Notes: generated from the letters alone by a model not told the origin. A stretch of 64,000 nucleotides of DNA from an uncultured Candidatus Bathyarchaeia archaeon (GCA_964501295.1 CAZCSF010000004.1:49009-113008), one strand, 5' to 3'; positions 3,814 through 62,674 are shown, numbered from the stretch's first letter. Numbers and translations are program-made.

Positions 3814-5091
3814 TTAGAGTTTTCCCGTCGCCCTATACTGCTCTATGAGTTCTTTGGCTCTGTCCATTCGGATTTTGCGTTCTTCCACCATTTTTTCAGC
3901 AACCAAGTCTATGAGTTCGCCTGTTGCGCCGGCGGCGACTGCAATGTTCCGCGCGTGAAGAGACATATGACCCCGCTGTATGCCTTCATGGGCTAGTGCC
4001 CTTAAAGCGCCTAGGTTTTGGGCTAAGCCGACAGCCACCAAGACTTCAGCAAACTCGTTGGCTGTTTTTACGCCGAGGATTTTTAGGCATATTTTGGCTA
4101 TGGGATGGGTGCGCACTGCTCCGCCTATTAAGCCGACAGCCATGGGCAGTTCTATTGAGCCTACCAAGTCGCCGTTTTCGTTTTTCTCCCACGTGGAAAG
4201 CGTCGTGTAATGTCCAGTTCTGGAGGCGTAGGCGTGGGCTCCAGCTTCTATAGCGCGGTGGTCGTTGCATGTGGCAATTATGACGGCTATTATGCCGTTC
4301 ATTATGCCCTTATTGTGGGTTGCAGCCCTATAGGGGTCAGCCGCCGCAAAAGCCCAGGCATTAACTATGCCATCTACGACTTCTTCTCCTCCGACAGCCT
4401 CTTTCGGCACAACGCACCATGCTCTGGCAAGGCGCTTAACAGCCAAGTTGGAAATTATCCGCAGATAAACGCGCCCACCAGTTATTCGCTCTATTAGAGG
4501 GGCTACTGCCTCGCACATAGTGTTCACGGCATTAGCGCCCATGGCGTCGCGGCAGTCCACATGCAACTCACTAATAACCATTGGTCCTTGCACTGTTTGG
4601 ATGACTTTTGCGTCTAGGTCTTTGGCTCCGCCGCCCACAGAAACCAGCACAGGGTCTTGGTCATTAGCCTTCTTTAGGATTTCTTCTTTGGCTTGCAAGA
4701 TGCGAAGCCTAGCCGCGTAAGGGTCTTTTATGCCTACGGCTTGAACTTGTCCAATCATGATTGGCGGAGTACTGCTCGCATGAAAACCTCCGCCATCCCG
4801 CGCCATTTTAGCAGCATAACTAGCCGCAGCCACAACAGAAGGCTCCTCAATAGCCATAGGCACCAAATAATCCCGACCATTAATTAGGAAGTTTACGGCA
4901 ATGCCCAACGGCACTGGAATAGCCCCAACAACGTTTTCTATCATGCGGTCAGCCAAATCCAAAGGCAAACTACCCGTATTCTGCAACAAGGCGCACTCCT
5001 CATCAGATAAGCCGGCAAACTCCTTAACAAAGGCTAAACGCTCTTTGGGACTAAGCTTATAAAAACCCGAAACTAGCGATGACTTACTCAT
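3814..5091 (-). CDS. hmgA: hydroxymethylglutaryl-CoA reductase (class II-like)
   Basis: 425 aa. IENVVGAIPVPLGIAVNFLINGRDYLVPMAIEEPSVVAAASYAAKMAR, DAMGANAVNTMCE, and C-terminal HMSLHARN. The short soluble N-terminus resembles class II enzymes. Confidence 0.85.
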   Translation of the reverse strand: MSKSSLVSGFYKLSPKERLAFVKEFAGLSDEECALLQNTGSLPLDLADRMIENVVGAIPVPLGIAVNFLINGRDYLVPMAIEEPSVVAAASYAAKMARDGGGFHASSTPPIMIGQVQAVGIKDPYAARLRILQAKEEILKKANDQDPVLVSVGGGAKDLDAKVIQTVQGPMVISELHVDCRDAMGANAVNTMCEAVAPLIERITGGRVYLRIISNLAVKRLARAWCVVPKEAVGGEEVVDGIVNAWAFAAADPYRAATHNKGIMNGIIAVIIATCNDHRAIEAGAHAYASRTGHYTTLSTWEKNENGDLVGSIELPMAVGLIGGAVRTHPIAKICLKILGVKTANEFAEVLVAVGLAQNLGALRALAHEGIQRGHMSLHARNIAVAAGATGELIDLVAEKMVEERKIRMDRAKELIEQYRATGKL

Positions 5092-35997: not shown

Positions 35998-36399
35998 TTA
36001 TGCTGGCTTAAAGTAATATCTTGGCCATTGGGGCCATGGCTGTGTGGCGGCGCATGTTCCGAAATCTAATGTTAAGGACATGCCAATCTTTATTTTTTCC
36101 AAGGCTATGCCTTTAATCATGCCTGGAATTTTTACTCCGTTTTCAAGCTGGACTATGCCGACAGCGTAGGGTGCCATTCCTTGAAATTGTGGAGGCGCCA
36201 CATGAATAATTGTGTACGTTAGGAGTTTTCCGTTTTTTGGGAGTTCAACCCATTCGAATTTATTTGAGAAGCAAATATCGCATAATGGTCGAGGTGGCAA
36301 GTGGATTTTGCCGCATCTTTTGCATCTTCCACCCATAAACTTTCCTTGGAGCATATGTTTGTAGAACTGTTCTATTGTGAAGGGCGCTTGCTCGCTCAT
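35998..36399 (-). CDS. DUF35 Zn-ribbon/OB-fold protein (thiolase partner)
   Basis: CKRCGKIHLPPRPLCDIC zinc ribbon, then an OB-like C-terminus. The ATG at 36399 lies just after the thiolase stop at 36401-36403. Confidence 0.8.
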   Translation of the reverse strand: MSEQAPFTIEQFYKHMLQGKFMGGRCKRCGKIHLPPRPLCDICFSNKFEWVELPKNGKLLTYTIIHVAPPQFQGMAPYAVGIVQLENGVKIPGMIKGIALEKIKIGMSLTLDFGTCAATQPWPQWPRYYFKPA

Positions 36400-36400
36400 T

Positions 36401-37573
36401 TTAGCCCATCCTATAAATGTGAACGGTTGCTGTAGCGCCTGAACCCCCAACATTATGCGTCAAACCAACTTCTGCATCTTTCACTTGCCTTTTTTCTGCC
36501 TGTCCCGTCAACTGCAAATAAATTTCATATGCTTGGGCTGTGCCAGTGGCGCCTACTGGATGCCCCTTTGCCTTTAGGCCTCCGCTTGTGTTTACTGGAA
36601 CTCTGCCTTTAAGCGCTGTTTCGCCGCTTTCGGCTAAATGTCCCCCTTCGCCTGGTTTGCAGAAACCCAAATCTTCATAGGCTATTATTTCGGCTATGGT
36701 GAAGCAGTCGTGGACTTCCGCCACGTCTATGTCTGCAGGTTTTAATCCAGCCATCTTGTAGGCTTGCTGTGCGGCTAGTTTAGCCGCTGTTAACGATGTG
36801 AAGTTTTCTCTTTCGTACATGCTTATCGTGTCGCTGGCTTGTCCGCTTCCAATAATGTGGATGGGTGTGTCGGTGTACTTTTTTGCCAGTTCTGGTTTTG
36901 TGAGGATTAGGCAGCTGGCTCCGTCAGTTATAAGGGAACAGTCATAAAGTTTTAGGGGCCAAGCTATAACCCGCGAGGATAAGGCTGTTTCAAGAGTTAT
37001 TTCCTTCTGCATGTGGGCCTTCGGGTTTAGGCTTCCGTTATAATGGTTTTTAACAGCCACATGGGCCAACTGCGTTTCTGTTGTGCCATACTTGTGCATG
37101 TGGGCTGTCGCCATCAAAGCGAACAACCCTGGAAAGGTTATGCCGTGCCACTGTTCAAAAGGGAAATCTGAAGCCATAGCCAAATATTCGGTAACTTCAG
37201 GCGTTGTTCTGTGGGTCATTTTTTCGACGCCTCCCACCATGACCACGTCGCATAAGCCTGAAAGCACAGCGAATATTCCAGCTCTTAAGGCTGCCCCGGA
37301 AGAGCTGCATGCTGCCTCTGTTCTTGTCGCAGGTATGTTCAGTAAACCAGCCCAATCTGCGGCTGTCGCGCCCGTATGTCCTTGATGTTCGTAGGATTCG
37401 CCCATATGCCCGATAAAAAGGGCTTTTATGTCTTTTTTGGGGTTTAAGTTTGGGCAGCGTTGGTAAGCCTCTTTTGCTGCTTCGGCAAAGATTTCTCGCG
37501 CATATAAGCCTTCAAGTTTTCCAAATCGTGATAAGCCTGCAGAAACTATGGATGCGAGGGGTTTCCCCTTCAA
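36401..37573 (-). CDS. thiolase (archaeal-type acetyl-CoA acetyltransferase), catalytically canonical
   Basis: 390 aa. Nucleophile context RTEAACSSSGAAL, and NTSGGLKAKGHPVGATG with the catalytic His. Confidence 0.8.
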   Translation of the reverse strand: MKGKPLASIVSAGLSRFGKLEGLYAREIFAEAAKEAYQRCPNLNPKKDIKALFIGHMGESYEHQGHTGATAADWAGLLNIPATRTEAACSSSGAALRAGIFAVLSGLCDVVMVGGVEKMTHRTTPEVTEYLAMASDFPFEQWHGITFPGLFALMATAHMHKYGTTETQLAHVAVKNHYNGSLNPKAHMQKEITLETALSSRVIAWPLKLYDCSLITDGASCLILTKPELAKKYTDTPIHIIGSGQASDTISMYERENFTSLTAAKLAAQQAYKMAGLKPADIDVAEVHDCFTIAEIIAYEDLGFCKPGEGGHLAESGETALKGRVPVNTSGGLKAKGHPVGATGTAQAYEIYLQLTGQAEKRQVKDAEVGLTHNVGGSGATATVHIYRMG

Positions 37574-37722
37574 ATTAAACTTCTCCTAGGGTTTACGGGA
37601 GAAATTCATAGTTATGAAACAAGTATTTAAGTTTCATCAACGTTTCCGCGATTTTTCCACGAAAGTTTTATGTAAACACCTCCTTAAACTATAGGCTCTA
37701 AAACAAAAAGGAGAAGAGAAGA

Positions 37723-38880
37723 ATGTGTGGAGTTGCAATTGTTGGCGTTGGATGCGTTGGCTTCAGACCAATAACTCCGGAGCTTTCCTACAAGGAGTTG
37801 ATGTTTGAGGCAGCGGTTAAAGCCTACGAAGACGCCGGTGGAATAAATCCAAGAAAGGATGTGGATGTTTTTGTCACATGTGCCGAAGACTATTTGGAAG
37901 GCTTCAGCATATCCGATGAATTCGTTCCAGACCAGCTTGGCGCGGCTTTGCGGCACTTGTTCACGGTTTCCGGCGACGGCATACTTGGGTTGGCAACAGC
38001 TTACATGCTGATAAAAACTGGTCATTTCGACACTGTTGTGGTGGAAGCCCACAGCAAAGCCTCAGACATTCTCACATACATGGACATCGTCAACTTTGGA
38101 CTTGACCCAATTTTTAATAGACCATTGGGCGGGCACCCATACTACATTGCTGGTTTGGAGATGAACCGTTACTTGCATGACACATGCGCCACAGAAGAGC
38201 AGTGCGCTCAAGTAGTTGTGAAAAACAAGAAAAACGCTATAGCGAACCCCTACGCGGCTTACGGTGCAGACGTAACCATAGACCAAGTTTTGTGTTCTGA
38301 AACCCTCTTCCATCCGCTGAAAAAGCTGGAAATAAGCACACCAGCAGACGGTTGCATAGTCATGGCTTTAGCTTCGGAGAAAGTTGCTGAAAAGCTCACC
38401 GACAAGCCAGTTTGGGTTAAAGGTGTCGGATGGTGCACTGAAACCCCAAGTCTGGAAACAAGAGACTGGACGAGGGCAGTTTACACTCGATTAGCGGCAG
38501 AAATGGCCTATAAAACAGCAGGAATCGCCAATCCATGGAGGGATATAGACTTCGCCGAAATTCACGACTTGTTCGCCTACAAGGAACTTCAGCATATGGA
38601 AGCCCTAAAGCTATGCGATTATGGCGAAGCTGGAAAACTAACAGAGGAGGGCTTAACAGCGTTAGATGGCGAGTTTCCAGTGAACCCGTCTGGAGGACTG
38701 CTTGGAATGGGTTATGGGCTTGAGGCTTCTGGACTGCAAAAGGTCTTGGAGGTTGTTCTACAATTGAGGGGCGAGGCGGGCTCAAGACAAATTGAGGACG
38801 TCGAAGTGGGATTAGCCCATACATGGCGGGGAATCCCAACGGCAACGGGTGCTGTAGCCGTGTTAAGCAATGTTAAGTGA
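37723..38880 (+). CDS. thiolase-fold (SCP-x type) protein lacking the catalytic Cys and His
   Basis: 385 aa. Aligned by eye to the neighbouring canonical thiolase: TEAACSSSG corresponds to LFTVSGDG (Cys to Ser), and GHPVGATG corresponds to GYGLEASG (His to Tyr). Confidence 0.7.
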   Translation: MCGVAIVGVGCVGFRPITPELSYKELMFEAAVKAYEDAGGINPRKDVDVFVTCAEDYLEGFSISDEFVPDQLGAALRHLFTVSGDGILGLATAYMLIKTGHFDTVVVEAHSKASDILTYMDIVNFGLDPIFNRPLGGHPYYIAGLEMNRYLHDTCATEEQCAQVVVKNKKNAIANPYAAYGADVTIDQVLCSETLFHPLKKLEISTPADGCIVMALASEKVAEKLTDKPVWVKGVGWCTETPSLETRDWTRAVYTRLAAEMAYKTAGIANPWRDIDFAEIHDLFAYKELQHMEALKLCDYGEAGKLTEEGLTALDGEFPVNPSGGLLGMGYGLEASGLQKVLEVVLQLRGEAGSRQIEDVEVGLAHTWRGIPTATGAVAVLSNVK

Positions 38881-38891
38881 GGTGGAAGAGC

Positions 38892-40058
38892 ATGTTTGGT
38901 AAGAAAAGGGTTGCAATAGTTGGAGCTGGAATAACCCTGTTCAGAAGAAACTTGAAAGAGACTGGGAAAGAGCTGTCCTACCACGCTGCAAAAATTGCGC
39001 TAGAACAGGCGGGAATGGAGCTTCGCGACATTCAAAGCGTTGTTATGGGAACGGCTCCGGACGCCTTCGACGGCGTCCACATGAAAGGCGAGTATTTGGC
39101 TGACGGAGCAGGAGCCTACCATAAACCATACACAAGGGTTTTTGTGGGCGGTGGAACAGGAGTTTTTACGCCTTTGGCTGGATGGTGGCATGTAGCCTCT
39201 GGACAGTTTGACACTTGCTTGGTTGTCTGCGAAGAGAAAATGTCTTCATGTTATCCGCATCCGCAGTACGCTTTCACAACGATTTTCGACCCAATCCTTG
39301 AACGTCCAATAGGCATGAACCTCATTTGGATTTTCGCTTTGGAAATGAACCGTTACATGCACAAGCATAACATAAAGAAGGAGGACATAGCCCTAGCCTC
39401 AGTCAAGAACAAGCGAAACGCCCTAGACAACCCTATTGCTCAGCTAGCTGCAAACATAACAGTTGAAGACGTGTTAAACTCGGAAGTTATGGCTTGGCCT
39501 GTTCAACGCCTAGATGTTAGCCCAACAAGCGACGGTGCAGCCGCGGCAGTTTTGGTTTCCGAAGACGTGGCAAAAGAAGTCACCGACAATCCCGTATGGA
39601 TTGACGGCGTAGGCTGGTGCATTGACTCAACCCATTGGACTAACCGCGACCTATATTATCCGGATTATGTGGAGTATGCGGCGCGTATGGCTTATAAAAT
39701 GGCTGGAATCAAAAACCCGCCTAAAGAAATCGATGTGGCGGAACCCTATGACCCCTTCGACTATAAAGAGCTGCACCACATGGAAGGCTTGCTCTTATGC
39801 AAGAAGGGCGAAGCGCCGAAACTGACAAGGGAGGGCGTGACCCAGAGGGACGGAGACTTGCCGACGTGCCCGTCCGGCGGGCTTCTTGGATGTGGAAACC
39901 CGATATCGGCAGCGGGAATGATGAAAGTCTGCGAAATCTTCTGGCAACTAAGGGGCGAAGCTGGCAAAAGGCAGGTTCCAGGAGACCCAAGAACAGGTGT
40001 TGCTCAAGCATGGGGGGACCTAATGCAGTATGGCTCAGTAATAGTGTTAAGACGATAA
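38892..40058 (+). CDS. second thiolase-fold (SCP-x type) protein lacking the catalytic Cys and His
   Basis: About 388 aa. The nucleophile position falls in VFVGGGTGV (Gly). GHPVGATG corresponds to GNPISAAG (His to Asn). Its start overlaps or abuts the stop of the preceding paralogue. Confidence 0.7.
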   Translation: MFGKKRVAIVGAGITLFRRNLKETGKELSYHAAKIALEQAGMELRDIQSVVMGTAPDAFDGVHMKGEYLADGAGAYHKPYTRVFVGGGTGVFTPLAGWWHVASGQFDTCLVVCEEKMSSCYPHPQYAFTTIFDPILERPIGMNLIWIFALEMNRYMHKHNIKKEDIALASVKNKRNALDNPIAQLAANITVEDVLNSEVMAWPVQRLDVSPTSDGAAAAVLVSEDVAKEVTDNPVWIDGVGWCIDSTHWTNRDLYYPDYVEYAARMAYKMAGIKNPPKEIDVAEPYDPFDYKELHHMEGLLLCKKGEAPKLTREGVTQRDGDLPTCPSGGLLGCGNPISAAGMMKVCEIFWQLRGEAGKRQVPGDPRTGVAQAWGDLMQYGSVIVLRR

Positions 40059-40075
40059 AAGAGGAGGAGTGGAAA

Positions 40076-40591
40076 ATGAGTGTAAAAATAAAGCATTTTC
40101 CGGGTGAGGAGATTGAGACAAAGGACTTCCGTGAGGGGAAGGTGCTTTTTGAAAGTTTTAGGCCTAAAGCCAAATATGCGTGGAGCGCAGGCATAGCCAT
40201 AAGCCGTTTCCTAGAAGAGTTGAAGAATGGGCGGATTATCGCCTCAACATGCAGCAAGTGCAAGCGCATAATGGTCCCGCCACGGATTTACTGTGAAAAA
40301 TGCTTTAAACCCACAGACGGGTGGACTTATGTGAAGGACACTGGCGTAATCAACACTTTTTCAGTTTCATTTCTGGCTGCTGATGCAACTAGGCTAAAGG
40401 AGCCCATTGTTGTGGCAATAATAGACCTAGATGGCACCTCTGAAAACATGGGAATAATCCACAGAATAGAAGAATATGGAGACTGGAAGGAAATCAAAAT
40501 TGGAATGCGTGTAAAAGCTGTCTGGAAACCTCCAGAAGAGCGTGTAGGAGCCATCACGGACATAAAATACTTCAAACCGTTAAAGGAGTGA
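40076..40591 (+). CDS. DUF35 Zn-ribbon/OB-fold protein
   Basis: The ATG at 40076 is preceded by gaggaggag. CSKCKRIMVPPRIYCEKC. The ORF-track extension back to 39797 overlaps the thiolase-like gene and is rejected. Confidence 0.8.
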   Translation: MSVKIKHFPGEEIETKDFREGKVLFESFRPKAKYAWSAGIAISRFLEELKNGRIIASTCSKCKRIMVPPRIYCEKCFKPTDGWTYVKDTGVINTFSVSFLAADATRLKEPIVVAIIDLDGTSENMGIIHRIEEYGDWKEIKIGMRVKAVWKPPEERVGAITDIKYFKPLKE

Positions 40592-40597
40592 AAAACC

Positions 40598-41065
40598 ATG
40601 AGTTTGGAAAAAATAACCAATCCGTTTGATGCGCGCCATTGGATAGGCCACATGGAGGCTGAATATCGCTACACGCTGGGCATCGCTGGAGAACGCTTTT
40701 TCAAAGAGATAAAAGAAAACGGGCGTATAATGGGGGCTAAATGCCCAAAATGCGGAGTTGTCTTTGTTCCGCCGAGGCTTTATTGCGAAAGGTGCTTTGC
40801 AAAGCTTGAAGAATGGGTTGATGTTGGCAAAAGGGGCGAAGTCTACACGTACACCATCGCCACAATAGATGTGGACGGCAAAAAACTGGAAAAGCCGCAG
40901 ATATACGCCCTAATAAAGTTTGAAGGCGCCCATGGCGGATTAATCCATCGGATAGGCGAAACAGACAAAGTCTACATTGGAATGAAAGTGGAAGCCGTCT
41001 TTAAGCCGTCCAGCGAAAGAAAAGCCTCAATAAACGACATAGCCTACTTCAAATCAGCAGAATAG
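40598..41065 (+). CDS. DUF35 Zn-ribbon/OB-fold protein (second copy)
   Basis: 155 aa with CPKCGVVFVPPRLYCERC. Only 6 nt separate it from the preceding DUF35 gene. Confidence 0.8.
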   Translation: MSLEKITNPFDARHWIGHMEAEYRYTLGIAGERFFKEIKENGRIMGAKCPKCGVVFVPPRLYCERCFAKLEEWVDVGKRGEVYTYTIATIDVDGKKLEKPQIYALIKFEGAHGGLIHRIGETDKVYIGMKVEAVFKPSSERKASINDIAYFKSAE

Positions 41066-41302: not shown

Positions 41303-41515
41303 ATGTCTAGTGGTGTTTTGGAGGAGGTTTTGAAAGAGGTTAGGCTTGTTCGGGAGAAGGTTGAGAGGTTAGAGGAGATTGTTGAGGAGAGGCTTATTGG
41401 AGTAGAGGAACCTTCAGAGGACGAAGTTAAAGCCGTTAAGGCTTACATGAAAGCTAAAGAAAAGGGAAAAGTGGAGCTTCTGCCATTAGAGGATTTTAAA
41501 AAGAAGGAGAAATAA
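41303..41515 (+). CDS. putative antitoxin (small acidic coiled-coil protein)
   Basis: 70 aa, Glu/Lys-rich. Lies 5 nt upstream of a RelE-like gene. Confidence 0.45.
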   Translation: MSSGVLEEVLKEVRLVREKVERLEEIVEERLIGVEEPSEDEVKAVKAYMKAKEKGKVELLPLEDFKKKEK

Positions 41516-41520
41516 TCATT

Positions 41521-41781
41521 TTGCCAAAATACTGCATCTTTTTAGAAAAAAAGGTGTCCAAACAGCTTGAAAAATTTGACAAGAACACCCGCGATAGGAT
41601 TGTTGAAGCTTTACATGTTTTAAGAGATGAAGGTTTCTCGCGTAGACTTGACATTGTAAAACTGCGGGGTTACAGAAACCATTATAGGTTGCGTGTTGGA
41701 AAGCTCCGCATTCTATTTGAGTTGGAGCGTGAGAGGACAATAATTGTTCATGCTGTACTGCCAAGGGAAACAGCCTATTAA
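41521..41781 (+). CDS. RelE/ParE-family toxin (mRNA interferase)
   Basis: 86 aa. KKVSKQLEKFDKNTRDRIVEAL...KLRGYRNHYRLRVGKLRILFELERERTIIVHAVLPRETAY matches the RelE pattern. Non-ATG (TTG) start. Confidence 0.7.
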   Translation: MPKYCIFLEKKVSKQLEKFDKNTRDRIVEALHVLRDEGFSRRLDIVKLRGYRNHYRLRVGKLRILFELERERTIIVHAVLPRETAY

Positions 41782-43153: not shown

Positions 43154-44836
43154 ATGTTTGATGAGGAGAAAATTAAAGAAATAGCCAAAGAAAGGCAACG
43201 CTGGGAAAAGTCAACACTGCCAAACTGGATTAAACATTGCCCAGAAAGGAAAAAGGAGTTCCAAAACCATTCTGGCATGACGATTAAGGGCTTATACACG
43301 CCTGAGGACATCAAAGATTTGGATTACATGAGGGATTTAGGGTTTCCAGGAGAATATCCGTTTACGCGCGGTTTGCATGCAACCATGTACCGCGGTCGCC
43401 TATGGACTATGCGAATGTTCGCTGGATACGGCACCGCTGAGGACACTAATAAGCGGTTCAAATACCTTTTAAGCGAGGGTGAAACCGGATTAAGCACGGC
43501 TTTTGATTACCCGACAATTATGGGTTACGACTCAGACCATCCCATGGCTAGGGGTGAAGTAGGCGTCTGCGGAGTAGCCATATCCTCACTGCAGGACATG
43601 GAAGTCCTTTTTAACGGCATACCATTAGATAAGGTTACGACTTCTATGACTATAAACGGTCCAGCGCCTATCCTCCTCGCCATGTACGTGGCTGTCGGCG
43701 ACAAACAGGGAGTCCCAAGAGAAAAGCTTGGTGGAACAACGCAAAACGACAATTTGAAGGAGTTCTTCGCTCAGAAACTCTGCATTTTTCCGCCAAAGCC
43801 ATCCTTAAAGCTTTCAGTTGACGTAATTGAATATTGTGCCAGATACTTGCCAAAATGGAACCCGATAAGCATTAGCGGCTACCACATCCGCGAAGCAGGC
43901 GCCACAGCAGTCCAAGAGTTAGCCTTCACCATCTATGATGGAATAGCCTATGTGGAGGAAACCCTTAAACGAGGCTTGAAAGTAGACGATTTTGCGCCAC
44001 GTTTATCCTTCTTCTTCGCATCCCACAACGACTTCTTTGAGGAAATAGCCAAGTTCCGCGCTGCCAGACGCCTCTGGGCTAAAATAATGAAGGAACGGTT
44101 CCACGCTAAAAACCCTCGTTCCATGTGGATGCGCATGCACGTTCAAACGTCTGGCTGCACCTTAACGGCGCAGCAACCCCTAAACAACATTGTCCGCACA
44201 ACAATCCAAGCTTTAGCCGCTGTGCTGGGCGGAACCCAATCCTTGCACACCAACTCTTTTGACGAAGCTTTATGCTTGCCAACAGAAGAGTCTGTGCGAG
44301 TAGCCTTGAGAACACAGCAAATAATAGCCTACGAAAGCGGAATTGCAAACACTGTGGACCCCCTTGCGGGCTCATATTACGTGGAGGCGCTGACAAATGA
44401 AATGGAGGAAAAAGTTATGGAGTATATACAAAAAATAGATGACATGGGCGGAGTAATTACAGCCATAGAGAAGGGTTTCTTCCAAAAGGAGATTGCTGAA
44501 AGCGCCTACAGATACCAGAAGGAAATAGAGGAGAAAAAGCGCACACTAGTCGGTGTAAACGAGTACGCCATAGAAGGAGAAAAATGTCCTGTAAAACTTT
44601 TAAGGGTGGACCCAAGCGTTGAAAAAAAGCAGATAGAGAGACTGCAAAAGTTAAAGAGGGAACGCGACAACAGAAAAGTGGAAGAAGCTCTTGAAAAACT
44701 TCATTATGCAGCAGAAAAGGATGAGAATCTCATGCCAACCATAATTGAAGCGGTTAAGGTATATGCCACATTAGGCGAGATAACAGAAGTGCTGCGAAAA
44801 GTTTACGGCGAATACAAAGAACTAATTATAATTTAA
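43154..44836 (+). CDS. adenosylcobalamin-dependent acyl-CoA mutase, large (substrate-binding) subunit
   Basis: 560 aa. [78 protein letters not shown]. Confidence 0.85.
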
Positions 44837-44850
44837 ATGAGGCGAGGAAA

Positions 44851-45258
44851 ATGCAAGGTGGAAAGAAAATTAGGGTTTTAATAGCCAAACCCGGACTCGA
44901 CAGCCACGACCGGGGAGCAAAAATTGTTGCAAGAGCCTTAAGAGACGCTGGAATGGAAGTGATATACACGGGATTGAGGCAAACGCCGGAACAAATCGTT
45001 GAAACAGCTTTACAAGAAGACGTGGATGTTATAGGCTTAAGCATTTTATCCGGCGCCCACTTGGCTCTCTTTCCAAGAATAATGGATTTGCTGAGGCAGA
45101 AAGGCTTAACAGACGTGCTAGTCTTCGCCGGAGGCATAATACCAGAAGAAGACATTCCGGAGCTTAAGAAAATCGGGATAAAAGAGGTTTTCGGACCTGG
45201 AACTCCCACAGAGACAATAATAAAGTATGTTTTAGAGAATGTGCAGAAAAGAACCTAA
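44851..45258 (+). CDS. acyl-CoA mutase small subunit (B12-binding domain)
   Basis: 135 aa. DxHxxG motif ([12 protein letters not shown]) and the GG block of the cobalamin-binding Rossmann domain. Confidence 0.85.
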
Positions 45259-45277: not shown

Positions 45278-46225
45278 TTGTCAAAAATTGATGAAATAAT
45301 AAATGGCGTGCTTGCCGGAGACCGAAGAAAAATAGCGAAAGCCATAACAATAGCCGAAAACAGTCCAGAAGAAGCCCAAAACTTAATCGCCTCTATTTAT
45401 CCCCACACTGGAAAAGCCCAAATAATAGGTTTAACGGGTCCAGGCGGCGCTGGAAAAAGCACTTTGATAGAGAAAATGGTTAGAGAATATAGGCGAAGGG
45501 GTAAAACCGTCGGCGTGATAGCCGTAGACCCAACAAGCCCCTTCAGCGGCGGAGCATTCCTAGGCGACAGAATCCGAATGCAAGAACTAAGCACAGACGA
45601 AGGCGTTTTTATCCGCAGCATGGCAACCCGCAACAACCCGGGAGGAATAGCCAAAGCCACAAAAGACGCTGTAAAAATATTGGACGCCGCTGGGAAAGAC
45701 GTGATAATTGTTGAAACCGTCGGCGCCGGACAATCAGAGGTGGAAATAATCAAAGTGGCACAGACAATAATCGTTATCCACGCGCCTGGACTTGGCGATG
45801 AGATACAAGCCATAAAAGCGGGAATTATGGAGATAGCCGACATATTCGTCGTGAACAAAGCTGACAGAGAAAACGCAGACAAAGCTGTAATGGATATCCA
45901 AGCAATGCTGCAGTTAGACAACAAAGAGAAGCCTTGGACACCGCCAATAATAAAAACAGTCGCCCTCACAGGCGAAGGAGTCCCAAAATTAATAGAAAAA
46001 ATAGAAGAGCACTGGCAGTTCCTAAAGAAAGAGTTATGGCACAAAAGAAGCCTAGAAAAAGCTGAAGCCGAATTAATAGAGGCGATAAAGGAAAAAGTGA
46101 CAAGCTCAATAATAGAAAAACTGAAAAGGGAGAAAAGATTCGAAAAGGTTCTCCAGCAAATTGTGGAAAGACAAATAGACCCAGCATCAGCGGCTGAAAA
46201 ACTGTTAAACCAAGAGTTGGAGTAA
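45278..46225 (+). CDS. meaB: MeaB/ArgK-type G-protein chaperone of B12 mutases
   Basis: 315 aa. GLTGPGGAGKST P-loop, VETVGAGQSE, VVNKAD. Confidence 0.85.
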   Translation: MSKIDEIINGVLAGDRRKIAKAITIAENSPEEAQNLIASIYPHTGKAQIIGLTGPGGAGKSTLIEKMVREYRRRGKTVGVIAVDPTSPFSGGAFLGDRIRMQELSTDEGVFIRSMATRNNPGGIAKATKDAVKILDAAGKDVIIVETVGAGQSEVEIIKVAQTIIVIHAPGLGDEIQAIKAGIMEIADIFVVNKADRENADKAVMDIQAMLQLDNKEKPWTPPIIKTVALTGEGVPKLIEKIEEHWQFLKKELWHKRSLEKAEAELIEAIKEKVTSSIIEKLKREKRFEKVLQQIVERQIDPASAAEKLLNQELE

Positions 46226-46232
46226 ACCACAC

Positions 46233-46763
46233 ATGCCTAAACTCGAAAAGGGGCTTGTGCAGGTTTATACGGGCGACGGAAAAGGCAAAACCTCAGCAGC
46301 CTTCGGACTGGCATTAAGGGCGATAGGAAGAGGGCTAAAGGTCTACATAATACAGTTTATCAAAGGAGGCTTCGACTACGGAGAACTATACATAATCGAC
46401 AAGCTTCCAAACCTTAAACTGAAAGCTTTTGGAAGAGGAAAATTCGTCACACACCAGCCACCGGAAAAAGTTGATATCGCATTTGCTGAAGAAGCGTTTC
46501 AGCTAGCTCGCGAAGTTGTGAAAAGCGGAGACTACGACATGGTTATATTAGACGAAATCAACGTAGCCCTAAACCTGAAACTCATAAGCCTAAAAGAAGT
46601 TTTAGAACTCATCAAGAACAAGCCAAAACACGTTGAACTCGTTTTGACGGGACGCTACGCACCAAACGAGATAATAGAAATCGCCGACCTAGTTACCGAA
46701 ATGAAGGAGGTTAAACACCCTTATAGAAAGGGATGTCAAGCAAGAAAGGGAGTAGACTACTAA
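46233..46763 (+). CDS. cobO: cob(I)alamin/cob(I)yrinic acid a,c-diamide adenosyltransferase (CobO/BtuR type)
   Basis: 176 aa. VYTGDGKGKTSAAFGLALRA P-loop, ILDEIN, LVLTGR. Confidence 0.8.
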   Translation: MPKLEKGLVQVYTGDGKGKTSAAFGLALRAIGRGLKVYIIQFIKGGFDYGELYIIDKLPNLKLKAFGRGKFVTHQPPEKVDIAFAEEAFQLAREVVKSGDYDMVILDEINVALNLKLISLKEVLELIKNKPKHVELVLTGRYAPNEIIEIADLVTEMKEVKHPYRKGCQARKGVDY

Positions 46764-58518: not shown

Positions 58519-58856
58519 TCGCTTCCTCCGTGTGTCCCCTCTAATTCGACAGTTTCTATTAATCTGAGAATTTCTGAGTCGCCGGGTTCTCTTATAGTTA
58601 ACGCTGAAATAATGAAGGGTTTTCCACAAACCATGGCTAAATCTGTTGATGACCCTTTATACACGATTAAGGGGATGCTGGAAAGCCGGCAATAGTATTC
58701 TAGGTCTCTGCGGATTTCCATTGGACAATTAGAGGCTATAATTATCATTTTGGCTTTCCCTGTTCTAGCGCTTTGTATGGCGAAGTTTGCGCCAAAATAA
58801 ACTTTACCAGTTTTCACAGCGGTTGTTATTGCTTTATTTACATCTATGTCTGTCAT
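58515..58856 (-). CDS. rpl30e: 50S ribosomal protein L30e
   Basis: 113 aa. AVKTGKVYFGANFAIQSARTGKAKMIIIASNCP...SSIPLIVYKGSSTDLAMVCGKPF. Confidence 0.85.
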   Translation of the reverse strand: MTDIDVNKAITTAVKTGKVYFGANFAIQSARTGKAKMIIIASNCPMEIRRDLEYYCRLSSIPLIVYKGSSTDLAMVCGKPFIISALTIREPGDSEILRLIETVELEGTHGGSE

Positions 58857-61800
58857 TTGTTCTCCCTCTTCAACTCTGAAGTGGACATGAAAAGCTCCAC
58901 CAAGCCCGTGCCTACTGGTATAGATTGGCCAACTATAACGTTTTCAGTTACGCCTTCCAGCGGATCGCTTTCCCCTCGGATGGCTGCATCCACAATGTTT
59001 GGAACAGTTATTTCGAAGGCTGCTCTGGCTAGGACGCTGGCTTTTTTGCCGCTTATGCCGTGTCTTCCAATTTGCTGCACTTCGCCAGTAGCGGTCATCA
59101 TGTCTGAAACAAGCATTACATGGCGTATGTCAACATCTAACCCTTGCTCTTCTAAAACGTTTTTAGCCTCTTGTATGAGGACATTCCTTGCAGCCTCTAT
59201 TCCCAAGGTTTTGGCTATTTCGTGAATGTTGTTTGTTGTTGTCCTAGTGGTGTCAACTCCGTAAACTTCTAAAACTTTGGAGAGATTTGAGCCGTCGGTT
59301 CTGATAACCCACTCGCCATGCTCCTCTGTAACCAAAACACGCTTTATACCTGGAACACCCTTAATGTAGAAGGAGGAAACTTTGTCCAAGAGTTTTTTGA
59401 GGACTTCAGCTTTTTTAGGCTTTATGTGCACGCGGTTCCCGCTTATTTTCACGGTGCAGTTTGCTATTTTCAATTCATCCCTAAGCTCTTGAACTGTTAT
59501 TCCCCTGTCTTCCATCATGGCTTTGTTTAGCTCCACAACTATTTCTTCGCGTACCGGATCTTGATAAATTGCCTCCGCTATATTCTCCAATGTTGTGTAA
59601 AGTATGTTCCGTGCGATTTTGACAGCCGCTTCTTTGCTCTTCCTATGCTTCTCATCCAAGTAGATGACCATTATTGGTGTTGATGGAACCCTTCTGGCAT
59701 CCACAATCTCTATCAGCCGGGGCAAACCTAGAGTTACGTTTTGCTCTCTGACTCCAGCATAGTGGAAAGTTCTAAGGGTCATCTGGGTGCCTGGCTCGCC
59801 TATGGACTGGGCGGAGACTATGCCAACGGCTTCACCTGGCTCCATTAAAGCCTTTTTGTAATGTTCAACTGTCAACTCTACGGCTTTGTCAACGCCTTCC
59901 TTGCTCAGCTTTGCTTCCGCCAAGCCTTGCCTAAGTTCGTTTATAAGCATTGGTGTCAGTTGATCCTCAACTTCTTTCAGTTTATTTTTGATATATTCTG
60001 GAGAGGCTGGCTTACCCTTTTCCATTCCGATTCTTATCTGCTCAATTAAGCGGTTAACGTTCACAGCCTTTCCATGGTCGCTTTTGGCGGGATCAACACC
60101 ATCCTCACCATATTTGAATTGGATTATGTCTCCAGCTGAGCTTCTCACGGTTCCATCGTATTCTAAGCGAAGGTGTTCCAGCGCATTGATTAGCCGCCTC
60201 TGCATGTAACCGCTCTGCTGCGTCCTAACAGCCGTGTCCACTAGGCCTTCTCTTCCTCCCATGGCGTGGAAGAAGAATTCAATGGAGTCTAAACCCTTCT
60301 GGTATGAAGAGTAAACAAAACCCCTTGCCTTTGGGGTTGGATCGCCATATTTAAAGTGGGGTAAGGCGCGGCCGATATATCCTCTCATTATTCGTTTTCC
60401 ACGGACTGCTTGTTGTCCCACACATGCACTCATCTGTCCAATGTTGAGGGCTGAACCTCTAGCGCCAGTGCGGGTCATGATTATGCCTGAATTTTCAAGA
60501 GCGAAATCTTCATCAGCTATTTTTCCAGACTCGTCCCTTGCTTTAGCCAGTTCGTTCATTACGTAAATTTCAAAGGAGTCCTCCAGAGTCTGCCCGGGAA
60601 GCCTTTGTAATGTGCCGTTGCGATAGCTTTCCACAAGCTCGCTGATCCTTTTCTCAACCCTTTCCATAATTTTTCTTATCTTACTCTCAGCCTGCGGTGA
60701 AAGAACAAGCTCTTCATAGGAGTATGTGAAACCCCGCATTGTTATGAAAAGTTTCAACAACCGCGTAATCTTATTTATAAACGCGCGTCCAGATTCCGTC
60801 CCATAATCTTTTATTATTCTGTGAAGGAGGCTTTCAGACTGTTCAGCTCCTATGGCGCGTCTGTCGATTACGCCGCTTATGAGTTCGCCGTTTTTAACAA
60901 CAACGTAGGCGTCGTAGGGGCATTCCTCTTTTAGGCATTTGGAGCATCCATGGCAAATGTTCGCCTTCAAAACATAGTTCAAGTCTTTGGGAAGGAAGAG
61001 GCTGAAGATTTGTTTACCACTCCACATAGGTTGCGGTTCTTTAATCTGGGGTTCAGGCAAAGGTCCTTCGTATTCAGCCGCCATTAACAATCTGCTGACT
61101 TCATCCTTTGTGAGGTAGTTGGATTTTCTGGTGAAGAGATAGGCAGCTGTTATAAAATCTCGAATTGCTCCTATTATTGGACCGCCAAACCTTGGAGAAA
61201 GTATCTGGTCTTGAACCTGCATTAAAAGGCGGGCTTCTGTTTGAGCCTCTTCACTTTGGGGAATGTGAAGGTTCATCTCGTCTCCGTCAAAGTCAGCGTT
61301 GTAGGGTGGACACACACATAGGTGAAGCCTAAACGTCTTGTATGGGAGAACCCGTACACGATGCGCCATTATGGACATTCTGTGAAGGGATGGCTGACGA
61401 TTGAAGATGGCTATGTCGCCGTTTTTAAGGTGTCTTTCAACAATAAACCCTGGCTCAAGGGCTTCAGCGATCTTCTCCCTATCAGCCACAAATTCAAGCC
61501 TAATGCGTTTGCCGTCTGGACGGATAATGTAAAGAGCCCCGGGATATTTTAATGGTCCATTTATGACAAGTTTCCGCATTTCTTCAATGTTCCATGGAGT
61601 TACTTTTTCGGGCACTGAAAGCCTCATGGCAACTTCCATGGGCACGCCAACCTCGTTGATGTCGAGGTTGGGATCTGGAGATATGACTGTGCGCGCTGAA
61701 AAGTCAACCCTCTTCCCGGAAAGGTTGCTTCTGAATCTTCCCTCCTTTCCCTTCAGCCTCTGAGAAAGCGTTTTTAGGGCTCTGCCGGAACGGTGCCTTG

Positions 61801-62674
61801 CCGGCGGTATTCCAGAAGCTTCATTGTTGAAGTATGTTGTCACATGATATTGGAGAAGCTCTGACAGGTCTTGAATTATGAGCGTTGGGGCTCCAGCATC
61901 CATGTTTTCCTTCAGTCTTTGATTAATTCGGATTATATCCACAAGTTTATGTGTCAAATCGTCTTCTGAACGTATGCCAGACTCCAAAGTTATGGATGGA
62001 CGCACGTAAACGGGTGGAACTGGTAGCACTTGTAAAACCATCCATTCTGGGCGGGCGGTTTTAGGGTCGAAGCCTAAAAGTTCAAGGTCTTCGTTGGGTA
62101 TGCGCTCAAGCCTCTCCCTAACCATGCTTGGCGTTAAAAGCTGGGCACCGCTTTCAGGGATTTCCTCGCTGAATTTTGTTGGTTTTTCAAAGGTTATTTT
62201 GTATTGGGAGGCATTGCAGTGGGGGCAAGTTTTAGATTTAGTTTCTTGAACTATCCTCTTAAACATTTCATCCGGAACCGTTCCCAAAAGTTGGCGGGTT
62301 TTTTCAATTCTAGCCCGCAGTTTTTTGACGGAGTCTTCTGGAAGGAGCATTCTCCCACAGTTTCTGCAAGTTGTTCTCAAAAGGTCGTAAATTATTCTAG
62401 CGAATTCGATGTGGATTATGGGAACTGCAAGCTCGATGTGGCCGAAGTGTCCTGGACAGCGGATCGCCGTGTTCCCGCAGGTTTTGCATCTTTGCCTTGG
62501 TTCAAGGGTTCCAAGACGCCCATCCATCAGCCCAGCGGTTATTGGAGCGCCATCCTCATCATAAGTGTCTGGAGTTTGAATTTCAACAACTGAAAGTTTG
62601 CGTATTTCTTGCGGCGAAAAAAATCCAAAACGAATTTCATCGACAACTTTATGGGCAACTTCTTCTAACGCCAT
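58853..62674 (-). CDS. rpoA: DNA-directed RNA polymerase subunit A (Rpo1), unsplit A'+A'' in a single ORF
   Basis: 1273 aa. Zinc sites CKTCGN...CPGHFGH, catalytic NADFDGDEMNLH, then in the same frame the A''-type region (EPGEAVGIVSAQSIGEPGTQMTLRTFHYAGV ... VIVGQSIPVGTG). Confidence 0.9.
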   Translation of the reverse strand: MALEEVAHKVVDEIRFGFFSPQEIRKLSVVEIQTPDTYDEDGAPITAGLMDGRLGTLEPRQRCKTCGNTAIRCPGHFGHIELAVPIIHIEFARIIYDLLRTTCRNCGRMLLPEDSVKKLRARIEKTRQLLGTVPDEMFKRIVQETKSKTCPHCNASQYKITFEKPTKFSEEIPESGAQLLTPSMVRERLERIPNEDLELLGFDPKTARPEWMVLQVLPVPPVYVRPSITLESGIRSEDDLTHKLVDIIRINQRLKENMDAGAPTLIIQDLSELLQYHVTTYFNNEASGIPPARHRSGRALKTLSQRLKGKEGRFRSNLSGKRVDFSARTVISPDPNLDINEVGVPMEVAMRLSVPEKVTPWNIEEMRKLVINGPLKYPGALYIIRPDGKRIRLEFVADREKIAEALEPGFIVERHLKNGDIAIFNRQPSLHRMSIMAHRVRVLPYKTFRLHLCVCPPYNADFDGDEMNLHIPQSEEAQTEARLLMQVQDQILSPRFGGPIIGAIRDFITAAYLFTRKSNYLTKDEVSRLLMAAEYEGPLPEPQIKEPQPMWSGKQIFSLFLPKDLNYVLKANICHGCSKCLKEECPYDAYVVVKNGELISGVIDRRAIGAEQSESLLHRIIKDYGTESGRAFINKITRLLKLFITMRGFTYSYEELVLSPQAESKIRKIMERVEKRISELVESYRNGTLQRLPGQTLEDSFEIYVMNELAKARDESGKIADEDFALENSGIIMTRTGARGSALNIGQMSACVGQQAVRGKRIMRGYIGRALPHFKYGDPTPKARGFVYSSYQKGLDSIEFFFHAMGGREGLVDTAVRTQQSGYMQRRLINALEHLRLEYDGTVRSSAGDIIQFKYGEDGVDPAKSDHGKAVNVNRLIEQIRIGMEKGKPASPEYIKNKLKEVEDQLTPMLINELRQGLAEAKLSKEGVDKAVELTVEHYKKALMEPGEAVGIVSAQSIGEPGTQMTLRTFHYAGVREQNVTLGLPRLIEIVDARRVPSTPIMVIYLDEKHRKSKEAAVKIARNILYTTLENIAEAIYQDPVREEIVVELNKAMMEDRGITVQELRDELKIANCTVKISGNRVHIKPKKAEVLKKLLDKVSSFYIKGVPGIKRVLVTEEHGEWVIRTDGSNLSKVLEVYGVDTTRTTTNNIHEIAKTLGIEAARNVLIQEAKNVLEEQGLDVDIRHVMLVSDMMTATGEVQQIGRHGISGKKASVLARAAFEITVPNIVDAAIRGESDPLEGVTENVIVGQSIPVGTGLVELFMSTSELKRENK

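Follow-up and report, generated by a model that had tools for sequence, protein, structure and literature searches.

What becomes of a thiolase fold that has lost the residues by which a thiolase works, and why should two such proteins be encoded side by side with two proteins of the DUF35 family? The question is raised by a locus at positions 35,998-41,065 of a 64,000-nucleotide stretch of DNA (GCA_964501295.1 CAZCSF010000004.1:49009-113008), the whole of which we call the window; it is Bathyarchaeia DNA, its homologues at 90-97% identity coming from Bathyarchaeota/Bathyarchaeia metagenome-assembled genomes (MAGs). On the plus strand lies a cassette of four genes, A-B-D2-D3, coding for two thiolase-fold paralogues (A and B) and two DUF35 proteins (D2 and D3), and diverging from a conventional thiolase gene (T1) with a DUF35 partner of its own (D1). 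Going by their sequences, A and B cannot be classical thiolases; we suggest, tentatively, that B could be the catalytic subunit of a heteromeric acyl-CoA C-C lyase of the aldolase type. The locus is laid out as follows.

35998-36453, minus strand: open reading frame (ORF) of D1, the DUF35 (zinc-ribbon plus OB-fold) partner of T1, by Pfam
36401-37573, minus strand: T1, canonical archaeal/SCP2-type thiolase of 390 aa, by Pfam (Thiolase_N/Thiolase_C_1) and NCBIfam (PRK06064)
37574-37722, no strand: divergent, A+T-rich intergenic region of 149 bp between T1 and A, read from the sequence
37723-38880, plus strand: A, thiolase-fold paralogue with Ser83, HDLF and Gly-Tyr331, by NCBIfam (PRK06066)
38877-40058, plus strand: B, thiolase-fold paralogue with Gly92, Y291-D-P-F and Gly-Asn341, by NCBIfam (PRK06065)
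40076-40591, plus strand: D2, first dedicated DUF35 subunit, by Pfam
40598-41065, plus strand: D3, second dedicated DUF35 subunit, by Pfam and by its match to 3IRB

Can the loss of catalytic residues be an artefact of alignment? An earlier note on this DNA, relying on manual alignment, had placed Ser in A and Gly in B at the position of the nucleophilic Cys, and Tyr and Asn, respectively, at that of the catalytic His. All four substitutions recur in three independent alignments, namely HMMER pairwise alignments to 6ESQ, 7YVY and 4YZO, a MAFFT multiple alignment, and an hhalign profile-profile comparison of 71 A and 81 B orthologues with a canonical-thiolase profile, the last of which matched at 100% probability over 379-384 aligned columns. 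At the three thiolase sites (nucleophilic Cys, HDCF motif and GH His), A thus carries Ser83, H281-D-L283-F and Gly-Tyr331, and B carries Gly92, Y291-D-P293-F and Gly-Asn341-Pro. The fold itself is retained (Pfam Thiolase_C_1 in A and B, Thiolase_N in B); the CxS Cys, present in T1, is missing from both paralogues, the HDCF/HDxF motif (HDCF in T1) reads HDLF in the A of the window, mostly DD[R/T/L]F in its orthologues and invariably YDPF in B, and the His of the GHP motif, again present in T1, is Tyr331 in A and an invariant Asn341 in B. The acid/base Cys of HDCF has likewise disappeared from both proteins, a point absent from the earlier note. Because no column anywhere in the A or B families holds Cys in more than 80% of the orthologues, a catalytic Cys hidden by mis-alignment, which the same note had named as the finding that would overturn its view, can be excluded. 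With three catalytic residues lost and no Cys conserved, neither protein can be a classical thiolase, and to this extent the earlier note is borne out.

Is the locus, then, merely a curiosity of one genome? It is not. A and B belong to curated NCBIfam families (PRK06066, 523.8 bits against a cut-off of 516, and PRK06065, 700.9 bits against 455), both catalogued as 'thiolase domain-containing protein' with no function attached. Scanned with the B-family alignment as query, the GTDB species, each represented by one genome, gave at least 594 confirmed matches, and synteny and neighbouring genes were read from the best 80 of these loci, a neighbourhood being the 8 kb around the cassette. Archaeal hosts among these 80 include Bathyarchaeia, Asgard archaea (Promethearchaeota, Hodarchaeota, Thorarchaeota and Hermodarchaeota), Nitrososphaeria, Thermoplasmata, Methanomassiliicoccales, Geoglobus (Archaeoglobi) and Geoarchaeota, and the bacterial ones include Anaerolineae, Caldilineae and a Symbiobacterium MAG; even between these groups B retains 70-76% identity. 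About 70 of the 80 loci have A-B-D2-D3 in unbroken order, and the recurrence of this order in so many species-level genomes from many phyla excludes a chance arrangement. The locus is a widespread cassette. T1-D1, on the other hand, are its divergent neighbours in just 16 of the 80, all close Bathyarchaeia relatives, which led us to reject T1 and D1 as obligatory fifth and sixth subunits.

The cassette also has more distant forms. Sulfolobus acidocaldarius and Saccharolobus carry it as an array of acyl-CoA dehydrogenase-A-B-D2-D3, in which B, 64% identical to that of the window, reads VGGATG, YDPF and GNPI. Searched with B by HMMER, the whole library yielded a large radiation of relatives that lack the Cys and fall under two signatures, one B-like (GG ... 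Y[DNA]xF ... NP) and one A-like (DG ... [DS][DE]xx); in an NCBIfam scan these A-like and B-like paralogues fell below cut-off, all in unnamed 'thiolase domain-containing' families. Some Asgard and Thermoplasmata loci (L061:13747-17019, L059:14923-17153 and L077:10274-12210) hold, a few kb away from the primary cassette, a second one whose A-like, B-like and DUF35 genes show about 33-40% identity, which suggests that heteromeric modules of Cys-less thiolase-like and DUF35 proteins have diversified repeatedly. Plasmids searched with B by tblastn yielded paralogues at no more than 37% identity and no orthologue. Among them, Rhodococcus and Haloterrigena plasmids bear paired A-like and B-like genes with DUF35 inside clusters resembling those for beta-oxidation or steroids, the Rhodococcus one combining a B-like gene (GG / YAPF / NP), a truncated A-like gene and DUF35 beside MaoC hydratases and acyl-CoA dehydrogenases.

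The earlier note had treated the two paralogues alike, and here the comparison of orthologues leads elsewhere, for B is almost frozen while the active-site positions of A drift. No fewer than 141 of the 393 positions of B are at least 97% invariant across 81 sequences, and this set covers the three former catalytic loops, G91-G92-G93-T94-G95, Y291-D292-P293-F294 and G340-N341-P342-I343. In A, by contrast, only 38 positions reach this level among 71 orthologues, and the former catalytic positions vary: residue 83 may be Ser, Thr, Cys, Pro, Gly or Ala, residue 281 is mostly Asp, and residue 331 is Asn, Tyr, His or Trp. The Tyr that had been noted after Gly in A does exist in the protein of the window, but it is lineage-specific, being found in only 18 of the 71 orthologues, and on this count A was rejected as a second aldolase acting through that residue. 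What A does keep are invariant residues of its own away from the thiolase site, e.g. E55-G73, T81, D85, E108, H110 and K112. Since the former catalytic loops are invariant in B and drifting in A, we infer a catalytic role for B and, for A, that of a structural, obligatory partner; selective constraint on the old active site of A would have been lost, and the protein would have been left with a structural or substrate-shaping task.

It could be objected that both proteins are pseudo-enzymes, serving as a dead scaffold, an acyl-CoA carrier or sensor, or a regulator of other enzymes such as a neighbouring acyl-CoA dehydrogenase or a real thiolase. Each canonical catalytic residue is, after all, gone from both paralogues and the old site of A is drifting; DUF35 is a known scaffold in thiolase/HMG-CoA synthase (HMGCS) complexes and in the archaeal fatty-acid synthase complex, and PhlA/MucA-type subunits provide precedents for inactive partners from the thiolase superfamily. 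Yet the invariance of B is concentrated, across phyla, in GGGTG, YDPF and GNPI, which together supply a chemically competent set of Tyr, Asp and Asn, and an identity of 70-76% between archaeal phyla and bacteria would be rare for pure scaffolds. We therefore regard two inert proteins as an unlikely outcome.

How would four subunits fit together? The core could be a thiolase-fold A/B heterodimer, each half of which would be capped by its own DUF35 zinc-ribbon/OB protein, in the manner of the solved complexes of Ltp2, Sal, BbsAB and thiolase/HMGCS, where the dimer of thiolase folds bears a DUF35 cap. Both dedicated DUF35 proteins look intact. The zinc ribbon of D2 (C59/C62/C73/C76) is kept in 72-75 of 75 orthologues, depending on the residue, and the Cys4 ribbon of D3 in 71-73 of 73, and the two proteins have a C-terminal motif in common, AV[WF]K..(E)R.G.I.DI.YF (AVWKP..ER.G.ITDI.YFKP in D2), that D1 lacks. 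D3 is moreover an orthologue of S. solfataricus SSO2064 (PDB 3IRB), which it matches over its full length (100.7 bits, E = 8e-28), and the SSO2064-type gene of Sulfolobales sits inside the A-B-D2-D3 cassette. Natural fusions join B, D2 and D3 into a single polypeptide in the representative proteins P0123 (731 aa) and P0140, and B and D2 in P0132 and P0198, and this Rosetta-stone evidence suggests that B binds both DUF35 proteins. In P0123 the zinc ribbon of the second DUF35 domain is degenerate (WCDELEAV...FCENGM).

A different arrangement would have A and B form separate homodimers, each with one kind of DUF35 (A2-D2x plus B2-D3x, or the reverse), and hence two enzymes. The thiolase-fold cores of the solved relatives (Ltp2, Sal, BbsB and the archaeal thiolase) are all homodimeric, and two DUF35 genes for two thiolase-fold genes would suit a one-to-one pairing equally well. 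The fusions in P0123 and P0140, however, attach B to D2 and D3 together rather than one DUF35 to each thiolase-fold gene; about 70 of the 80 genomes keep A and B together, in many cases with the stop codon of the one overlapping the start codon of the other; the drifting active site of A hardly befits an independent enzyme; and the paralogous cassettes (L061 and the Rhodococcus and Haloterrigena plasmids) again pair an A-like with a B-like gene. Two separate homodimers thus seem improbable to us, and the heteromer with two dedicated DUF35 subunits envisaged by the earlier note gains from the gene order kept across phyla and from both types of fusion: A and B very probably assemble with D2 and D3. 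A four-subunit architecture in which B is the active subunit is the more demanding proposal, and one that we consider likely.

Which chemistry could the conserved residues of B serve? In steroid aldolases the His of HDCF is replaced by a Tyr acting as the catalytic base, as in Ltp2 (YDHF), CtSal (YDCY) and TbSLP (YDCF); in CtSal the nucleophile is replaced by Gly, which precludes thiolysis, and protons are donated by Tyr344 in Ltp2 and by the Cys of the motif in Sal (PMC12329534). B shares the Y-D-x-[FY] pattern of these enzymes, with Y291-D-P-F invariant in all 81 sequences, while A, with HDLF or DDxF, does not. The 50 residues that separate Tyr291 from Asn341 in B equal the distance from Tyr294 to Tyr344 in Ltp2, and the local alignment of B with 6OK1 stops at chain residue 343, opposite Gly340 of B; because of this spacing and this end point, Asn341 very probably occupies the position of Tyr344 and of the GH His. 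The equivalences between B and Ltp2 derive from the published motifs (PMC12329534), the spacing and the end of the local 6OK1 alignment. The analogy with Ltp2 drawn in the earlier note therefore holds for B, with its invariant Tyr291 at the position of the base and a Gly as in CtSal, and fails for A, in which the Tyr after Gly is not conserved.

The invariant Tyr and Gly and the placement of Asn341 suggest that B is built for acyl-CoA enolate chemistry without a covalent acyl-enzyme. Tyr291 would act as a general base on the beta-hydroxyl, like its counterpart in Ltp2 and Sal, and Asn341, together with backbone amides, would polarise the thioester, so that a 3-hydroxyacyl-CoA could undergo retro-aldol cleavage to acetyl- or propionyl-CoA and an aldehyde or ketone, or be formed from them by aldol addition in the opposite direction. 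By analogy with the enzymes just named, this would be the best-precedented reaction for B.

What do the genes around the cassette have to say about substrates? When all ORFs of the 80 neighbourhoods of 8 kb were clustered, an acyl-CoA dehydrogenase of the short-chain type turned up in 27 loci; it is adjacent and co-directional in Sulfolobales, and among solved structures it comes closest to butyryl-, short-chain- and isovaleryl-CoA dehydrogenases. Further recurrent neighbours are an AMP-forming CoA ligase (19 loci), an acyl-CoA mutase operon (12), crotonase (10) and electron-transfer flavoprotein (ETF) subunits (5). In Nitrososphaerota MAGs (L038:7992-13218, L046:7998-12147 and L051) B and D2 are parted by the gene for an AMP-forming acyl-CoA ligase (about 650 aa), in surroundings that hold ETF alpha and beta, an Fe-S/CCG oxidoreductase, an acyl-CoA dehydrogenase and a branched-chain aminotransferase. 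Other neighbours are lineage-specific: CoA-transferase subunits in Thermoplasmata and Geoglobus, the aminotransferase just mentioned in Nitrososphaerota, a BKACE-family enzyme and an F420-dependent luciferase-like oxidoreductase in Asgard archaea, and an IOR-like 2-oxoacid:ferredoxin oxidoreductase in Sulfolobales. HMG-CoA synthase is not among the recurrent neighbours in the 80 loci. Taken together, these genes suggest that the substrates are short or branched acyl-CoAs originating from amino acids or short fatty acids, in whose degradation the complex might act after a short-chain acyl-CoA dehydrogenase.

For an aldolase this context is weakly consistent: hydroxyacyl-CoA dehydrogenases are few, acyl-CoA dehydrogenase, crotonase and CoA ligase are near, and an aldehyde oxidoreductase occurs in two loci. 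These two are Hodarchaeota/Promethearchaeota MAGs (L023:11770-13707 and L029:10354-12222, identified by eye), in which an aldehyde:ferredoxin oxidoreductase-like gene directly follows D3 and is itself followed, in L029, by a CoA ligase; this position would fit an aldehyde product, in two loci only.

Several observations nevertheless weigh against taking B for an aldolase and A for its mere support. The proton donors of the known aldolases are missing from B, in which Tyr344 of Ltp2 corresponds to Asn341 and Cys304 of Sal to Pro293. B is also far closer to true thiolases (E = 8e-48 against 7YVY and 1.6e-38 against 6ESQ) than to Ltp2 or Sal (3.6e-21 against 6OK1 and 8.4e-21 against 9MYR), so that its Tyr is probably convergent and might serve another role. 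Homologues of MaoC hydratase are absent from all 80 neighbourhoods and crotonase is present in only the 10 mentioned, and the near-absence of 3-hydroxyacyl-CoA dehydrogenase from the same 8 kb (a homologue in 1 of the 80 neighbourhoods) is weak negative evidence. The 38 invariant residues of A may reflect a role beyond scaffolding. The stoichiometry of the heteromer is inferred, and AlphaFold2 models of the single chains, built from homologues of at least 80% identity only, are moderate for B (pLDDT 69, pTM 0.79) and poor for A (pLDDT 42). Foldseek with the B model returned DUF35-associated and SCP2 thiolase folds that all lie at TM 0.75-0.84, a range in which thiolases and aldolases are not separated.

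Might B, perhaps, still be a thiolase of sorts, in which the CoA thiolate or an acetyl-CoA enolate attacks a 3-ketoacyl-CoA directly, giving a Cys-independent thiolase or Claisen enzyme specialised for the thiolysis of beta-oxidation? The proximity of B, in sequence and fold, to true DUF35-associated thiolases, the neighbourhoods reminiscent of beta-oxidation (acyl-CoA dehydrogenase, CoA ligase, crotonase, ETF) and the possibility that Asn341 and the GGGTG loop still make oxyanion holes would all agree with this. Against it, both histidines and the acid/base Cys have gone from B as well, the 3-hydroxyacyl-CoA dehydrogenase that would supply the 3-keto substrate is near the cassette only once in 80, and cassette genomes also possess canonical thiolases, e.g. 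T1. We know of no thiolase-fold enzyme that carries out thiolysis without a nucleophilic Cys, which counts against such a reaction here. CtSal, with its Gly at the same position, is stated to be incapable of it (PMC12329534). A thiolytic B is accordingly improbable, and aldolase-like cleavage by B remains the reading that we prefer.

Some cassettes are flanked by, or enclosed in, an operon for a B12-dependent acyl-CoA mutase, and the window itself provides an example:

43154-44836, plus strand: B12-dependent acyl-CoA mutase large subunit, by Pfam/NCBIfam
44851-45258, plus strand: mutase B12-binding subunit, by Pfam/NCBIfam
45278-46225, plus strand: MeaB GTPase (mutase chaperone), by Pfam/NCBIfam
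46233-46763, plus strand: corrinoid adenosyltransferase, by Pfam/NCBIfam

The label that this mutase would ordinarily receive is 'methylmalonyl-CoA mutase'. Among solved structures its closest relative is, in fact, the 2-hydroxyisobutyryl-CoA mutase HcmA (4R3U; 632 bits against 537 for methylmalonyl-CoA mutase, MCM), and it has Phe (RMFAGYG) and Gln (FFAQKL) at the positions of the Tyr and Arg that bind the carboxylate in MCM, and Ala at that of the HcmA Asp. With the Tyr/Arg pair absent, methylmalonyl-CoA mutase was rejected. We take the Phe/Gln/Ala set to be a signature of the isobutyryl-CoA-mutase type, and the enzyme is probably an isobutyryl-/butyryl-CoA (or pivalyl-/isovaleryl-CoA) mutase. 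In one locus (L033:2931-11102) acyl-CoA dehydrogenase, adenosyltransferase, large and small mutase subunits, A, B, D2, D3 and MeaB form an array on one strand, which suggests a functional link of the mutase with the cassette; the contig (JBBIRW010000001.1) is labelled as a Deltaproteobacteria MAG, its gene content resembles Bathyarchaeia, and it may be mis-binned or horizontally acquired.

The mutase operons, which flank or enclose the cassette in those 12 loci, could also be taken to mean that B is a decarboxylase of malonyl-, methylmalonyl- or related carboxy-acyl-CoA, akin to the Cys-less ketosynthase-type KS-Q and chain-length-factor subunits or to TbSLP, which combines YDCF with the lack of a nucleophile and slowly decarboxylates malonyl-CoA (cited in PMC12329534). 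But the neighbouring mutase has Phe and Gln instead of the Tyr and Arg that bind the carboxylate of methylmalonyl-CoA, decarboxylation of the KS type needs two histidines, both of which are replaced in B, and the rate of TbSLP is negligible and CtSal has no such activity at all (PMC12329534). Of the readings considered here, decarboxylation is the one to which we attach least weight, and we hold it to be highly improbable.

What would an aldolase-like B imply? At its boldest, the cassette would encode a new pan-archaeal acyl-CoA aldolase, also present in Asgard archaea, that cleaves C-C bonds independently of dehydrogenase and thiolase; we hold this to be rather unlikely. Tertiary or branched substrates may serve as an example, such as 3-hydroxyisovaleryl-CoA, which would be split into acetyl-CoA and a ketone or aldehyde, the aldehyde passing to aldehyde:ferredoxin oxidoreductase. 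Were this true, it would amount to a carboxylase-free route for leucine or branched-chain catabolism and, in reverse, to a thermodynamically favourable aldol route for carbon-chain extension. The proposal is directly testable, given that Sulfolobus acidocaldarius, a genetically tractable species, carries the cassette beside an acyl-CoA dehydrogenase gene and that a crystal structure of SSO2064 exists.

Some details of the locus may be added here. The six genes were called by ORF listing and translation, with domains assigned by Pfam and families by NCBIfam. Pfam thiolase domains are found in T1, A and B, and zf-ChsH2 and OB_ChsH2_C score above cut-off in D1 (6e-9 and 3.5e-18), D2 and D3, all three of which thereby display the Cys4 rubredoxin-like zinc ribbon followed by an OB fold that marks a DUF35 protein. 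T1 reaches 505 bits against the PRK06064 cut-off of 420, and its motifs RTEAACSSSG, HDCF and KGHPVGATG are intact; with the Pfam domains of D1, these motifs uphold the reading of the minus-strand pair as a canonical thiolase with its DUF35 partner. The likely start of D1 is the ATG at 36399 (133 aa), one base past the stop of T1. The cassette spans 37723-41065 and is as tightly packed as had been described, with the 149 bp between it and T1: A and B overlap or are 11 nt apart, 17 nt separate B from D2 and 6 nt D2 from D3. B more likely starts at the ATG at 38892, which GAGGTGG precedes, since the resulting 388 aa match the homologues, and D2 is preceded by a strong ribosome-binding site, AGGAGGAG. 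A bacterial-type promoter scan of the intergenic region gave nothing informative, and bacterial-type promoter and terminator, Rfam and tRNA scans gave nothing bearing on the locus.

Elsewhere in the window, two small adjacent ORFs at 41303-41515 (plus strand, 70 aa) and 41521-41781 (plus strand, 86 aa) lie between the cassette and a gene for a pyridoxal-phosphate enzyme; the product of the second looks like a RelE/ParE-type toxin (HYRLRVGKLRILFELERERTIIVHAV), and the two may be a toxin-antitoxin pair. Many archaea encode subunit A of RNA polymerase in two pieces, A' and A''; here a single ORF of 1273 aa with all five Rpb1 domains, at 58853-62674 (minus strand), encodes an unsplit subunit A. 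HMG-CoA reductase is encoded at 3814-5091 (minus strand). As the earlier note had remarked, HMG-CoA synthase is missing from the window: no ORF of at least 300 aa has an HMGCS match in Pfam, whether beside the reductase or beside T1/D1, and the usual archaeal clustering of HMGCS, thiolase and DUF35 therefore appears to be broken in this genome.

How does the cassette relate to what has been described before? No paper was found in the literature on the cassette, its function or the asymmetry of its subunits, nor a functional one on the Sulfolobus tokodaii protein 4YZO discussed below; the sequences are already in databases, and it is their architecture, active-site type and distribution that appear to have escaped recognition. 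The paper on the SSO2064 structure (3IRB), the first of a DUF35 protein, proposed only a generic acyl-CoA-binding role. A preprint on archaeal fatty-acid synthase counts 'KT/DUF35 pairs' as candidate ketothiolases, with seven in S. acidocaldarius and an Asgard average of 3.8, and is silent on members devoid of catalytic residues (bioRxiv 10.1101/2024.07.05.601840). A 2026 paper on MucABC defines archaeal acetyl-CoA acetyltransferases by the motifs CxS, HDxF and GHx, all three of which A and B lack. Pathway reconstructions that count the cassette genes as thiolases are thus probably wrong for the cassette, which matters above all in Asgard archaea, where 'ketothiolase/DUF35 pairs' have been read as a capacity for fatty-acid synthesis or degradation (bioRxiv 10.1101/2024.07.05.601840) and where the cassette, among the best conserved of such units, is no ketothiolase. 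If the aldolase reading is true, some of the pairs cited for fatty-acid synthesis in Asgard and other archaea would belong to a different enzyme class, and the thiolase-fold/DUF35 C-C lyases, hitherto confined to bacterial steroid degradation, would extend to an archaeal heteromeric form with a different active site.

The closest functional parallels are the aldolases of steroid side chains and bile acids, Ltp2-ChsH2(DUF35) of Thermomonospora curvata (6OK1) and Sal-Shy(DUF35) of Comamonas testosteroni (9MYR). Like B, they combine an SCP2-thiolase fold (TM-score of 0.77-0.78 to the B model) with the loss of the catalytic cysteines, a bound DUF35 partner and a Tyr in place of the HDCF His. Their core is homodimeric, however, and their DUF35 is the C-terminal domain of a MaoC hydratase (ChsH2 or Shy), whereas the cassette is predicted to form an A/B pair, D2 and D3 are free-standing (155-171 aa) and MaoC does not occur near it; by E-values (~1e-21 as opposed to 1e-48 to true thiolases) B does not belong to their clade; and they serve bacterial steroid catabolism, whereas the cassette is pan-archaeal. 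A pair that may be of the A-like/B-like type is the actinobacterial Ltp3/Ltp4, which Wilbrink et al. in 2012 reportedly linked to the cleavage of C24-branched sterol side chains, the two proteins being, it is said, adjacent, mutually dependent, lacking thiolase residues and proposed to be an aldol-lyase.

The thiolase/HMGCS/DUF35 complex (6ESQ/6ET9) is the best structural match of the B model (TM 0.83) and follows the same principle of a dimer on a DUF35 scaffold. T1 and D1 are of this kind; the motifs CxS, HDxF and GHx, present in such thiolases, are all lost from A and B, and the complex contains one thiolase-fold and one DUF35 type where the cassette has two different ones of each. ST0096 of Sulfolobus tokodaii (4YZO), the top solved match of A and the second of B, also has a Ser at the nucleophile position (TSGSGG) and HDMA for HDCF, but, unlike A and B, keeps GHP, and at about 32% identity it is an orthologue of neither. 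The benzoylsuccinyl-CoA thiolase BbsAB and the Friedel-Crafts acyltransferases PhlABC/MucABC are likewise multi-subunit thiolase-fold complexes with DUF35, and PhlABC/MucABC even join an active thiolase-fold subunit to an inactive one from the thiolase superfamily, as may be the case for B and A. In contrast to the cassette, however, the nucleophilic Cys is retained in BbsB and PhlC/MucB, the place of the inactive partner is taken by an HMGS/KAS-III-like protein instead of a second SCP2-type thiolase fold, and each complex has one DUF35 type; the cassette has no HMGCS or KAS-III-like partner. Compared at the level of sequence and gene content, the cassette therefore resembles the DUF35-capped thiolase-fold complexes as a group and belongs to none of them, be it thiolase/HMGCS, Ltp2-ChsH2, Sal-Shy, BbsAB or PhlABC/MucABC.

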